64,000 nt of DNA. Origin: a virus. Positions 9,299 through 60,528 of this stretch are shown here, one piece after another. How positions within the stretch are numbered: the stretch's first letter is position 1; every line of letters begins with the position of its first letter. The notes under the pieces are model-generated. The model ran no database searches, was not told the DNA's origin, and saw only the letters and a list, made by a program, of their open reading frames with translations. The stretch lies in the IMG/VR virus record IMGVR_UViG_3300029121_000001. One strand, 5' to 3'. The position numbers and the translations under genes are program-made.

Positions 9299-9366
9299 TT
9301 ACAGATGAAGAACTCGATCCTTGATTTCCTCAGTACGACCCTGATTCCAGAATTGAGTCCCAATAT
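9299..9366 (-). CDS. nrdD: NrdD exon 2 (completes the glycyl-radical motif and C-terminus)
   Basis: Joined to exon 1 it reads ..RRTCG/YIGTQFWNQGRTEEIKDRVLHL*, which is the canonical RxCGY(I/L)G...WNxG(K/R)xxEIxDRVxH end of class III RNRs. Confidence 0.75.
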
Positions 9367-9694
9367 CCTTTATACCCTCGGTTTCCCGATATTTAAGTAC
9401 GGGAGTAGACTATACATTATCACCTAATTTATAGTATTAGACTTATTGCTATTATAGTCGTTGAACGTCTCTCATATATTTCTATAGAAGATTTCGCTGC
9501 GTCTGAGTGACTTGCACACTCGGTTGATCCTACTCCAACCAGTTCTTATGGTCTCTACTATATTTCAAGCTGTTGAGTTTTAAACTCGTGCCACTATCAC
9601 GCTTATCATTTCTGATTACGTTGTAGTCGGTTGGGATTATGGGATTGTTCCCGCAATTTAAGCAATTTAACGTGAGCCATATTTTATTCATCTA
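9367..9694 (-). ncRNA. group I self-splicing intron (no ORF) in nrdD
   Basis: Minus-strand core GUUCAACGACUAUAAU (cf. Tetrahymena R element GUUCACAGACUAAAU) and AUGUAUAGUCUAC (cf. S element GAUAUAGUC). P7 is GACUA/UAGUC. P1 is exon GUGGGU with guide GCUCAC, including the terminal U.G pair. P10 is exon-2 AUAUU with AAUAU just 5' of the guide. The intron ends in G. Confidence 0.75.
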
Positions 9695-57495: not shown

Positions 57496-59318
57496 TTACA
57501 TTCGAACAGAATTAGAGAAGTTTGCTCTCTTTGCACCGAATTGGCCAATACCAGCAGACGATGCAGGGAAATTACCAAGATTATCAGAAATGATCTGTTC
57601 ATAATCAATCAATTTTCTCAACCAATCAGGAACAGGAAGATCTTTAGGTAGTGCAATAGTATCAAGCTTTCCTTTGAAAACTTTATTAATTGTTCTACCT
57701 TCTACTAATCCTGTATTATTAAGATCAATCAATTCACAGATCTTTACATACTGCATTGGATAATCTTCTCTAATAGTTTCCAAGGTATATTTATCAACTT
57801 TAACCTTGATTACATCAATGGCATTTCTATCATTCAAATCAAATCCAGGAAGATCACACTTGATATAATTCCATGCCATTGCTGCTTTAACACCTTGAAT
57901 TCTAGTAGGATCATCATAGTTATCCATAGACTTAATAGTTGCAGGCTTGTAATATTTCTTAGATCCGGAAACAAGATCATTATAAATGGTCTTTTCAAGA
58001 ATAGCAATGTCTTTGATCAACTTCAATTGATCAATAGAATCTCCAGTAAGCATATCTTCAAGAAGAATCTTTTTCAATGCTTTCTGGGTATCTTTAGAAG
58101 TAGAAGATTTAGTTAGACAATCAATACCCTTGACATCCAATACGCCACTTCCAAGATAATTGCCTTCCTGCAGAATCTGAAGACTTGCATAATGTTTCTT
58201 TGCATCTGTCAACATGATTCGAGACATATAGAACTCATTCTTCATGTTGATCTTACATTTATCAGCTCCTCTAAAAGATTTAGATTCCTTAGTAAAATCA
58301 ATCATATACTGATTAATTACAGAAGAGAGAATATAACACATGATATTGATCAATGCAAATTTTACATTATCCTGAGGAATAATCTTCGTAGCATCAATCA
58401 TTCTCTTTTGCTCAATAATCTCTTCATTAAAGAAATCATAATCTTTTTTATTTTCCAGAAATTCAATAGCTGCTAATTCATCAGGGTTTGCAATGTCACC
58501 AAAACTATCAGTTTTTAAGAAACTTATTGCAACCTGTTTATCTACAGCATTATACCAATCTGGGGTTTCTGTATCTTTCCAGAAATAATCTTCTTTCTTC
58601 TTTTCAGCTTCTAGATACTTAAATACATCAATCTGTTGATGCATAATAGGACAGTCATAATTCTGAAGATACTGGATATTATAATTATACCAAGCATCCA
58701 AAGAAATGAAAGACGAGTCAGTATCAGATACAATAGATACTGTCTTAATCATTTCTTTATTTCTAATCATTCTATCCATATATTGATGACAGTAGAAGAC
58801 ATATTCCATCAATAGATCACGAAGCTGATCAAGATATCCGATTATTTCTTTCGGAGGTTTAGCAGGTTCAATATAAGGAGTTTTCATTCCAGTAATAATC
58901 TTTATCATCAAATCTCTTGCAATAGGCAAGTCCATAAAACAATAAAGATTATTCTTATAGAACAATCTATTCAATTCAATCTGATTACAATTTTGAATAA
59001 TTCTCCATACAGTTTCCATATCCTGTTCTGTAGGAACATATTTAAAACCACAATTTAGAATGATCTTATTAAAACATTCATCTGGAGAAATAAAACCATT
59101 AAATCCAAGAACTTCATAATCATTATATTTCCAGTCATTTCCCTCCATTCTTACATTGTCAATAAAGATGAGAACATCATTAAGACTTCCAAACTTAACA
59201 TTGTTCCCAAGGAATCCTTCAAAGCAAAGAATTGCAGAACTAATTAGAGATCTACCGATAGATGTTACAGAAGGTGCAATGTTGAGGTCGAACAAAATCG
59301 ATACATACAAACCAACCA
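57496..59318 (-). CDS. family B DNA polymerase, exon 3 (palm/thumb)
   Basis: After splicing it reads ..IYG/LVGLYVSILFDLNIAPSVTSIGR (cf. RB69 [26 protein letters not shown]). Motif C is VSIVSDTDSSF and the KKxY motif is DAKKHYASL. The track N-terminus MINSNELREDFV is intron sequence. Confidence 0.8.
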
Positions 59319-59653
59319 CAAAATCTTCACGTAGCTCGTTGGAGTTAATCAATGGATTAATCCTCTCTTCTACGCAGTTCTCTTATGAACTTCTCTAGGT
59401 GTTGCCTAGAAGTTGTGACTATATAATAGTCTATATAAATTATTTTATATAGACCCAGGATTTTCGAATTAAACGGTCTTACGTTTACAAGACAGCCGTC
59501 CCCACTTGGGGCCTACTCCTCTTAAGAGGATAGTCGATAAGCGTCTCTTATGATTTCTCATAAGCTTTCGCAATTGATTAGAGCCGTAGCCCTTTCCCAA
59601 TTTTAACCCTTGTTATCATTCTTGACTCACATCAAGAAGGGGCAGTTTAGTTT
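59319..59653 (-). ncRNA. group I intron B in the DNA polymerase gene (no ORF)
   Basis: Minus-strand core CUUAUCGACUAUCC and UAUAUAGUCAC (P7 GACUA/UAGUC), preceded by a P8 hairpin. P1 is exon GGGU with GCCC, including U.G. P10 is exon-3 GGUU with AACU. Ends in G. The 3' hairpins are shared with intron A, with compensatory changes. Confidence 0.65.
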
Positions 59654-59663
59654 ACCCGTATAT
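59654..59663 (-). CDS. family B DNA polymerase, 10-nt micro-exon (AUAUACGGGU, encoding I-Y-G)
   Basis: This is the only way to restore motif B: ..QALDKIDVNG-IYG-LVG.., matching KxxxN(S/G)xYG. Bounded by an intron-terminal G (59664) and an exon-terminal U (59654). Confidence 0.55.
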
Positions 59664-60042
59664 CGCAATATTCATGTAAGTCGTTGATATTATCTCTCAC
59701 TTACACAGTTCTCTAATGAACTTCCCTAGATTATCTCTAGGATACTAGACTATATCACTACCATATCATATTTCTATGACTTAGGTACACCAGATTTCGA
59801 GACTCACTTGAGCTCTACAACTAGTCGTTGAACCTATTAGAGAATTATTTCTCTAAGCTGGATGCTGATTGTCTATTTTGGTTTAAAAATACTTAGGCTT
59901 ACTATCACCATATATCATCCTAATTATTATTTCTGCTTTCGCTCTAATATCTACACATATTAGCAATTAGGCTTTAAGACTTCCCAGCAATTTCTTGGTG
60001 TTACCATTTGACCGTTTCCAGCCTAATGGGGCTATATAGTTA
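59664..60042 (-). ncRNA. group I intron A in the DNA polymerase gene (no ORF)
   Basis: Minus-strand core GGUUCAACGACUAGUUG and GAUAUAGUCUAG (P7 GACUA/UAGUC). P1 is exon GGU with GCC. P10 is micro-exon AUAUA with UAUAU just 5' of the guide. Ends in G. Confidence 0.65.
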
Positions 60043-60483
60043 ACCATTTACATCTATCTTGTCCAAAGCTTGTAATAGATTATATTTCTCAAATTGTTCT
60101 GATCCTTTAGGATATTTAAACATTTCCTTTTTATGAATTTTTCGAAGGTCTAGGAAGTTTTGAATGACTCTCGCCATAGGATTAGGAACTACATCATGTC
60201 TTCTAAACATAGTTCCATAACTTGTCAGAATTGGTTCTCTTCGTGCAATATAATCAATCAACTCTAGCATTGTTAGTTGAGGATCAGAGTTTGTATAATT
60301 ATTTTTTACAGTCAGAGTAAAATTCTGAAATCGCTTAGCTATCGAATATTCTACACCAGCATAAATGTCTCTAATATCCATTTCTGGATGAATAGAGTGA
60401 ATTATTCTAGACATAGTATCTCGATAATGCATAAGCATCTCGTGATCTTTCGGATTTACTGTTCCATTAATGTCTCTTATCAT
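60043..60483 (-). CDS. family B DNA polymerase, exon 1 (fingers region); begins a separate cistron
   Basis: ..NPMARVIQNFLDLRKIHKKEM.. and ..YNLLQALDKIDVNG align with RB69 [10 protein letters not shown]. Start trimmed to ATG 60483 (SD AAGGAG). No exonuclease motifs or motif A (DxxSLYPS) upstream in this window. Confidence 0.7.
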
Positions 60484-60528
60484 TCCATATAGTTCTCCTT
60501 TCAAAATGTTATATTACTAAAATATTGA

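Follow-up and report, generated by a model that had tools for sequence, protein, structure and literature searches.

Very short exons between neighbouring group I introns have been described from several sources. In orf142 of phage Twort, the exon between introns I2 and I3 measures 23 nucleotides (nt), and its skipping is reported in the summary that PMC10136302 gives of Landthaler & Shub 1999. A 34-nt exon between group I introns of Coxiella 23S rRNA, for which skipping is also reported, and engineered tandem Tetrahymena introns with 24-nt exons, where differing splice-site recognition elements favour inclusion, are found in the same paper (PMC10136302). Here we describe an internal exon of 10 nt in a 64,000-nt stretch of viral DNA (IMG/VR record IMGVR_UViG_3300029121_000001; this whole stretch is called the window below). 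The gene for the catalytic subunit (palm, fingers and thumb) of a divergent family B DNA polymerase is interrupted there within the codons of motif B (K-I-D-V-N-G / I-Y-G-L / V-G; a slash in a sequence marks an exon boundary). We are confident that the interruption consists of two separate group I introns without open reading frames (ORFs), termed A and B, which lie 10 nt apart, and that the 10 nt between them are retained as a micro-exon.

The locus resembles Twort orf142 in that one phage protein gene carries two introns of type IA around a very short internal exon, with similar guide sequences and a risk of skipping. As in orf142, two complete ribozymes are present, each with its own paired regions P1 and P10 on the shared exon. 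The exon is 23 nt there and 10 nt here, however, and the two Twort introns are highly similar, whereas A and B share only segments in P1, P7 and P9.1. In addition, the host gene is here a DNA polymerase, the exon codes for invariant residues of a catalytic motif, and splicing is deduced from the sequence.

Shorter internal exons are known in mitochondria. Placozoan cox1 has a 1-nt exon between two group IB introns, supported by RNA-seq (PMC5436844), and mitochondrial mini-exons of under ~4 codons between group I introns have been described as regular (PMC10352661). The 10-nt exon is like these in lying far below the normal footprint of P1 plus P10, in being flanked by two independent group I introns and in being kept for a conserved residue. 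The mitochondrial cases are organellar, with splicing that is likely protein-assisted, whereas the present gene belongs to a virulent-type phage with coupled transcription and translation, and its exon still accommodates separate P10 and P1 helices. No new principle is involved. No report of a micro-exon in a phage gene was found in the open-access literature. For phages and bacteria, the other exons between group I introns that we can document there are all longer than 10 nt, with those of Twort (23 nt) and Coxiella (34 nt) coming next. The initial annotation, made from the sequence alone, knew of no internal exon so short; for phages and bacteria in the searched literature this stands, but not for group I introns in general.

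Three further systems are close. According to the references given in PMC3984707, the polymerase genes of phages SPO1, SP82 and Bastille contain group I introns with HNH nicking endonucleases. There, too, IA-type introns occupy conserved polymerase motifs, ORF-bearing and ORF-less forms occur, and nearby but distinct sites are used. The introns of SPO1 and Bastille reportedly differ in insertion site in just this way. Those polymerases are of family A with one intron per gene, in contrast to a divergent family B gene with two introns at once, or three in relatives. Fungal mitochondria contain the side-by-side twintrons cox3-640 and cob-201, the first of which splices as a unit (PMC12308204). 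They likewise consist of two group I modules arranged head to tail, a few to 18 nt apart, but the spacer of cox3-640 is non-coding, whereas here the coding function of the spacer is indispensable and either module can be found by itself in relatives. Finally, among intron-rich phages of the human gut (Jug, crAss-like), terL, nrdD and DNA polymerase genes are interrupted by group I introns, with splicing backed by metatranscriptome reads for about half of the predicted introns; micro-exons and tandem introns are not mentioned in that paper (PMC12880540). The phage of the window belongs to another group. It is an AT-rich jumbo phage of ~270 kb, occurs in human and animal gut metagenomes and is distantly AR9/PBS1-like by its polymerase, which is 26-30% identical to the polymerases of AR9/PBS1, Staphylococcus S6-like and phiR1-37 jumbo phages.

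Reading frame of the polymerase gene

The gene lies on the minus strand and is split by a 724-nt gap between two ORFs (Table 1). The upstream ORF (60040..60504) comprises 154 amino acids (aa), but its real start is the ATG at 60483, which has a good ribosome-binding site; full-length homologs share this start position, with query coverage of 98-99%. The encoded protein reads MIRD...QALDKIDVNG, and its last GGU codon is directly followed by UAA. In the downstream ORF (57496..59352), polymerase homology starts only at ..VGLYVS (VGLYVSILFDLN), and the first 12 codons (MINSNELREDFV) have no counterpart in homologs. This N-terminal extension is sequence of intron B (P9.2) and differs or is absent in relatives. 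In Pfam searches of the separate ORFs, the downstream one matched PF20286 (divergent family B DNA polymerase) and the upstream one gave no match. Neither ORF alone encodes the YG of motif B.

Table 1. Positions of exons, introns and intron elements at the polymerase locus; positions refer to the window except for intron C, for which contig positions are given.
Feature	Position	Strand	Details
Exon 1, family B DNA polymerase catalytic-subunit gene	60043..60483	-	ATG 60483; ends ..AAU GGU = ..N G
Intron A, ORF-less group I (IA-like), 379 nt	59664..60042	-	in-frame UAA at start; last base G59664
Intron A guide region	60030..60038	-	P1: UAGCC (60034-60030) with GGU/UA; P10: UAUAU (60038-60034) with micro-exon AUAUA
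Intron A core	59748..59826	-	P7 5' strand GACUA 59826-59822; one P7.1/7.2-type hairpin; P3 3' strand 59792-59787; P8 59779-59766; P7 3' strand UAGUC 59752-59748
Micro-exon AUAUACGGGU, 10 nt	59654..59663	-	I-Y-G codons plus first base of the Leu codon
Intron B, ORF-less group I (IA-like), 335 nt	59319..59653	-	UAA across the 5' splice site (U/AA); last base G59319
Intron B guide region	59640..59647	-	P1: UGCCC (59644-59640) with GGGU/A; P10: AACU (59647-59644) with exon 3 GGUU
Intron B core	59417..59535	-	P7 5' strand GACUA 59535-59531; three hairpins in the P7.1/7.2 position; P3 3' strand 59462-59457; P8 59456-59428; P7 3' strand UAGUC 59421-59417
Exon 3	57496..59318	-	starts UG GUU GGU UUG.. 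= (L)VGL..; stop codon 57496-57498; PF20286 divDNApol
Intron C (relatives)	L004:1933-2289, L006:1901-2257, L020:6033-6406, L021 (reverse complement), L002:2254-2610, L024		

Joining exon 1 (to 60043), AUAUACGGGU (59663..59654) and exon 3 (from 59318) yields a 757-aa protein, ..LDKIDVNG-IYG-LVGLYVS... The micro-exon restores both the reading frame and the sequence KIDVNGIYGL of motif B. A contiguous K-x3-N-[SG]-x-Y-G, corresponding to the family motif KxxxNSxYG, arises as KIDVNGIYG only after both splices. A protein-collection search with the spliced product returned many uninterrupted homologs of ~750 aa (64-76% identity, 98-99% coverage), as well as many truncated ORFs of 603-633 aa. In an alignment to 18 uninterrupted homologs there are zero gaps at both junctions, so that the spliced product proposed by the initial annotation is colinear with all of them, and the closest homolog (P0002) is identical to it over LDKIDVNGIYGLVGLYVSILFDLNIAP. 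The spliced product also gains a match to PF00136 DNA_pol_B (E 1.8e-12, residues 98-179) that extends across the junctions and is lacking from the separate ORFs. It further aligns without gaps to a poxvirus family B polymerase (KIVANSVYGLMG..TSIGR), in which the motif is KIVANSVYG; RB69 polymerase was not among the Protein Data Bank matches of the spliced product at E<=10. From this colinearity, the micro-exon would be part of the mature mRNA.

The domain content of the 757-aa product (57496..60483, minus strand) is limited to the polymerase: PF00136 is matched from profile position 115, and the best stretch of PF20286 starts at profile position 423. Because the gene lacks such a domain, an exonuclease or N-terminal domain must be encoded elsewhere. 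AR9-like phages and phiR1-37 likewise annotate the homolog as 'catalytic subunit'.

The TTG with which the downstream ORF opens is preceded, at a distance of 8 nt, by the sequence AGAGGA (59352..59370, minus strand), which belongs to the P9.2 stem-loop of intron B. This AGAGGA, which is probably there by chance, accounts for the extension of the downstream ORF into intron B by gene callers. Together with the two ORFs given by gene callers, it could be taken to mean that the gene is not productively spliced, the polymerase being built from separate polypeptides or the gene being a decaying pseudogene of a defective phage. We regard this as very improbable. The YG of motif B is missing from both ORFs, and the N-terminal extension of the downstream one is an intron stem that is variable or absent elsewhere. 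Moreover, the arrangement recurs in many independent gut assemblies and on contigs of 265-270 kb, with intact exons and compensatory changes in the helices; this recurrence indicates selection on ribozyme function.

For annotation, the consequence is that gene callers split an essential polymerase into two ORFs and drop three invariant residues. Dozens of the truncated 603-633-aa fragments are in the protein database, where they can pass for split or degenerate polymerases, and ORF-joining pipelines blind to micro-exons would give a frameshifted model.

Intron occupancy in related phages

To compare alleles of the locus, DNA was fetched for homologs with differing ORF starts; the relatives are gut-phage contigs, given here with L numbers. 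No intron is present in L001 (..AATGGTATATACGGTCTTGTAGG..), L013-L016 and L018. Intron A alone occurs in L009, L010, L011, L012 and L025 (example junction AATGGT/TAAC...TACG/ATATATGGCCTTGTTGG), and L002 and L024 also have A and lack B, with a further intron, C, carried in addition. Intron B alone occurs in L003, with the junction AATGGTATATACGGGT/AGGT...GATTTTG/TGGTTGG. Both A and B are present, as in the window, in L004, L005, L006, L019, L020 and L021. This arrangement was found in at least seven independent assemblies of the window's lineage, and contigs of 265-270 kb carry it. A second lineage with both introns is represented by L007, a more distant contig in which diverged versions of A and B flank AUCUACGGGU.

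Since alleles with neither intron, with A only, with B only and with both exist, the boundaries of each intron are defined independently and to the nucleotide. Each intron starts with a base other than that which opens the next exon, and it ends with a base other than that which closes the preceding exon, so that shifting a splice site by a single nucleotide would no longer yield the intron-less coding sequence. The comparison with intron-less homologs, proposed in the initial annotation, thus leaves both junctions gap-free and the splice sites fixed. In the cmscan alignment of P1, U60042 appeared as the last exon base before intron A; this was rejected, as the intron-less and single-intron alleles allow only 60043/60042 and 59664/59663.

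These alleles also bear on whether the 724-nt gap might be one composite intron, a tandem or side-by-side twintron in which the 10 nt are a spacer between modules. Precedents are cox3-640 of fungal mitochondria, in which tandem group IA modules are spliced out together (PMC12308204), and the exon-skipping products that arise with tandem group I introns (PMC10136302). In a twintron spliced as a unit, the sequence between the modules is non-coding. When exon 1 is joined straight to exon 3 here, however, I-Y-G is deleted and the frame is shifted, and the I-Y-G residues are present in all uninterrupted homologs. The 10 nt are conserved as coding sequence: they are identical in 7 loci with both introns, and the change to AUCUACGGGU in L007 is synonymous. 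In A-only alleles the 10 nt are contiguous with exon 3, and in the B-only allele with exon 1. We therefore give the composite intron hardly any chance; the data fit only a pair of separate group I introns around a 10-nt exon that is retained.

Exon sequence at the B site varies with intron B. Each allele that has this intron reads GGG U/UG there (UAC GGG U/UG GUU), whereas the A-bearing relatives free of intron B (L002, L011, L012, L024) read UAU GGC CUU GUU and the intron-less L001 reads UAC GGU CUU. Position -1 of the site is accordingly U in every B-containing allele and C in these five contigs. The exon differences that track the presence of intron B (59654..59663 and 59314..59318) are synonymous. 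The intron-less L013 reads GGG UUG and is either a ready target for intron B or the product of precise intron loss. The exon context of the B site agrees with the required U opposite the G of the guide, and it would also agree with co-conversion of exon markers during homing. Pattern scans of IMG/VR found no A+B junction, no junction of an ORF-less B-only allele and no intron-less allele in which the exon context is of the B type.

Intron structure and exon recognition

Both introns contain the elements named in the initial annotation, namely the P7 halves GACUA and UAGUC, the P8 hairpins and the stems GUAAGU with ACUUAC (A) and CGUAG with CUACG (B). Between the 5' strand of P7 and the 3' strand of P3, A has a single hairpin (but two in its L009 and L025 versions) and B has three. 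Both introns also have P9, P9.1 and P9.2, in which covariation is seen. With extra P7.1/P7.2 helices and a P9.1/P9.2 extension, A and B match the layout of subgroup IA, an assignment that follows from this anatomy and from the features of the Michel-Westhof classes. Subgroup IA is the usual type in phages, as in T4 td and Twort. Both introns end in G, and their excision restores the reading frame exactly. They contain no endonuclease ORF, the sole ORF in the gap having 43 aa.

A and B were described in the initial annotation as related. This holds for the P1/guide region, P7 and P9.1, to which their similarity is mainly confined, and a P9.1 motif common to both, GAAGUUCAU(U/A)AGAGAACUG, occurs twice in the window vs 0.11 times expected. 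It does not hold overall, as the global identity of 62% is close to the 58% of shuffles. Core segments of A and B resemble introns or their surroundings in AR9/PBS1, Twort-like Staphylococcus and Vibrio phages; a megablast search of the region against phage records gave no match.

A second I-Y-G-coding string, AUAUAUGGU, is located at 59915..59907 (minus strand) in the P5 extension of intron A, so that AUAUACGGGU is not the sole YG-coding string in the gap, as had been assumed. As a real exon, AUAUAUGGU was rejected; it belongs to the P5 extension, which covaries, and A-only alleles contain it in addition to an exon IYG of their own. It could mislead automated micro-exon finders.

In a local Rfam cmscan of positions 59200..60200, the group I model RF00028 (Intron_gpI) was matched over its full length (1-253) by intron A at 59724..60051 (31.5 bits, E 5.6e-6) and by intron B at 59395..59663 (31.0 bits, E 7.7e-6), the second match starting exactly at the 10-nt segment. 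A search with this model, which the initial annotation had suggested, thus yields two full-length matches that are below threshold. Several results count against two group I introns that splice independently, and the Rfam results are the first of these. Both scores (31 bits) are below the gathering score of RF00028, which is 50 bits; a scan of the window at the gathering threshold gave no match; neither A nor B was listed in a whole-window scan by E-value; and an Rfam scan of five whole loci at E<=0.01 returned nothing. We take the absence of A and B from the whole-window list to be an effect of filtering or search space, since the 1-kb scan found both. The Rfam support is real, yet sub-threshold.

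Because of the sub-threshold scores and the absence from the whole-window list, independent support was sought. Twelve versions of intron A and eight of intron B, all from related contigs, were aligned. Pairs were counted on a structure that includes the P7 pseudoknot, with shuffles (500 for A) and slid partners as controls. RNAalifold recovered P2, P3, P4, P5 with its extension, P6, hairpins of the P7.1/7.2 type, P8, P9, P9.1 and P9.2. For intron A, the share of paired cells is 97.8%, and two-sided changes are seen in 33 pairs, compared to 8.1 ± 2.3 in shuffles (0 of 500 reach 33) and 3-10 with slid partners. The corresponding values for intron B are 99.0% and 17 pairs, compared to 2.5 ± 1.5 in shuffles and 0-5 with slid partners, although most of this covariation stems from one diverged sequence (L007), a second point on the unfavourable side. 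P3, P4 and P7 are nearly invariant (one pair, in P7 of B, has changed on one side) and are supported by the model match, not by covariation. As a whole, the covariation fits the canonical group I topology with a conserved P3-P8 core and a P3/P7 pseudoknot. Together with the occupancy alleles, the RF00028 matches and the covariation bear out the positions first proposed for A, B and the exon between them.

Exon recognition can be followed base by base at both introns, which start with UAACUAUAUAGCCCC (A) and AAACUAAACUGCCCC (B). In P1 of intron A, GCC of the guide pairs with exon GGU, including a U60043-G60032 wobble, and the helix is extended by U1-A10 and A2-U9. In P1 of intron B, which is invariant and was predicted by RNAalifold, GCCC pairs with GGGU, including a U59654-G59643 wobble, with A1-U10 in addition. 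The terminal U of each 5' exon is thus opposite a guide G and, like the terminal G of the introns, had been correctly identified in the initial annotation. P10 of intron A covaries in L009, where exon AUCU faces guide AGAU. For P10 of intron B, L007 has exon 3 UAAUC and guide AAUU, with one pair changed on both sides and one on one side. An in-frame UAA is found at both 5' splice sites (GGU/UAA in A, GGG U/AA in B), and a stop codon in this position is a common feature of phage introns.

Nucleotides 1-5 of the micro-exon belong to P10 of A and nucleotides 7-10 to P1 of B, and C59658 separates the two. The initial annotation assumed that the same 10 nt serve both helices and concluded that splicing is ordered or interdependent, a conclusion that does not follow: the exon-binding helices occupy non-overlapping halves of the micro-exon, so base pairing forces no order and either order is chemically possible. 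Intron A probably splices first because it is transcribed first; it would be complete ~350 nt before the core of B is transcribed, and B would then see an ordinary long 5' exon.

In the mechanism that we propose, each intron would fold into its own complete ribozyme, from P1 to P9.2, and ribosomes would be halted by the in-frame UAA at each 5' splice site, ahead of the ribozyme core. Guide A would pair with GGU of exon 1 through the U-G wobble; in the second step it would form P10 with AUAUA of the micro-exon. Guide B would pair with GGGU of the micro-exon, again through a U-G wobble, and then with GGUU of exon 3. Guanosine-initiated two-step transesterification would excise each intron after its terminal G. 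The expected product is exon 1 + AUAUACGGGU + exon 3, coding for a 757-aa polymerase with an intact KIDVNGIYG. The predicted spliced RNA is ..GUAAAUGGU-AUAUACGGGU-UGGUUGGUUUG, with the junction 5'-GATGTAAATGGTATATACGGGTTGGTTGGTTTGTATG-3' and the peptide ..DVNGIYGLVGLY...

The remaining points on the unfavourable side concern this mechanism, in which self-splicing of A and B and its order are predictions from sequence. The P1 helices are short, with 3 (A) and 4 (B) base pairs to the exon, and P10 of intron A is weak in L025. The guides are near-identical (UAGCCCC in A, CUGCCCC in B, with GCCCC shared), and both 5' exons end in GGU. Guide A pairs with the micro-exon (-5.9 kcal/mol) at least as well as with its own exon 1 (-4.1 kcal/mol), whereas guide B favours its cognate micro-exon (-5.8 kcal/mol) over exon 1 (-2.2 kcal/mol). 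RNAalifold accordingly chose to pair the guide of intron A (60030..60034) with GGGU of the micro-exon (59654..59657) in loci with both introns. Near-identical guides and the stronger pairing of guide A with the micro-exon make mis-splicing or exon skipping plausible.

The same observations would fit a functional coupling of the two ribozymes, by an obligatory order or cross-acting guides, with regulated skipping of the micro-exon. This refines the reading of two separate introns and does not deny it. A single unpaired base separates P10 of A from P1 of B, and skipping is documented for the 23-nt Twort and 34-nt Coxiella exons in what PMC10136302 reports of them. Nevertheless, P10 of A and P1 of B share no nucleotides, and the P10 helices are unlike (AUAUA vs GGUU); this, together with the dissimilar cores, should favour inclusion of the micro-exon. 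The cores are only ~62% identical, near the shuffled level, which makes a composite ribozyme unlikely. Neither intron depends on the other, since both are found singly in relatives. Moreover, exon skipping (junction 5'-GTAAATGGTTGGTTGGTTTG-3') yields a frameshifted, truncated polymerase. While coupling through steric effects or guide cross-recognition is possible, we consider a functional coupling of the above kind unlikely. A more elaborate form of it, to which we give slightly less credence still, has the ribozymes splice in an obligatorily ordered or cooperative way, with guide A docking the 5' splice site of B or only one core docking at a time. The ratio of inclusion to skipping could then set the level of active polymerase, three-intron relatives with micro-exons of 23 and 10 nt would form a three-ribozyme relay, and the insertion hot spot described below would reflect homing endonucleases that compete and mask each other's target sites.

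For two separate introns, the length of the exon is informative in itself. As 10 nt is about one P10 (5 nt) plus one P1 exon strand (4 nt), the locus offers a natural test of the minimal exon between group I ribozymes. It also tests how exon inclusion is enforced with nearly the same guides, which has so far been studied with natural exons of 23 nt and engineered ones of 24 nt (PMC10136302).

Further insertion sites and a third intron in the window

Additional introns interrupt motif B in relatives. Intron C is inserted 23 nt upstream of A (..CAAGCCU/UAAC...AUUUG/UAGACAAG..; see Table 1), with perfect helices P1 (GCCU with GGGC) and P10 (UAGAC with GUCUA). Since L004, L006, L020 and L021 carry it besides A and B, their polymerase genes contain three introns, and the micro-exons between these measure 23 nt (UAGACAAGAUAGAUGUAAAUGGU) and 10 nt. 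Another intron lies 13 nt upstream of site A in L008 (1-195), a contig that starts inside the intron. In L017 (2545-3692; site E), an intron is located 6 nt upstream of site A, with P1 and P10 of 6 base pairs each and, in its P6 region, an ORF with HNH_3/NUMOD4 domains (HNH_3 E 3.6e-6). This gives five insertion sites in 33 nt of motif B.

ORFs are also found in versions of A and B themselves. The B-site intron of L003 (1847-3034) has a 272-aa ORF (1913-2731) in the P1 loop, running into P2, with a weak HNH_3 match (E 0.031, below the cut-off), and intron A of L019 has an ORF ahead of P7, where the locus is cut. As ORF-bearing forms of both introns exist, both were or are mobile. A and B would have reached this homing hot spot independently. 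With four occupancy states, triple-intron alleles and five sites in 33 nt, the locus is a compact system for homing elements that stack and compete in one conserved target.

The window contains a third group I intron, which is 328 nt long (9367..9694, minus strand) and flanked by exons ..9695 and 9299..9366. A regular-expression search of the window for P7 pairs was not discriminating beyond the three introns already found. The third intron is inserted in nrdD, in the glycine-radical motif (..RTCG/YIG..). Its P1 pairs the 5' exon end GUGGGU with guide GCUCAC, and its P10 pairs AUAUU of the 3' exon with AAUAU. The local scan matched it to RF00028 with 21.8 bits (E 0.0034). Upon splicing, the Pfam NRDD match grows from 541 of 562 to 562 of 562 profile positions.

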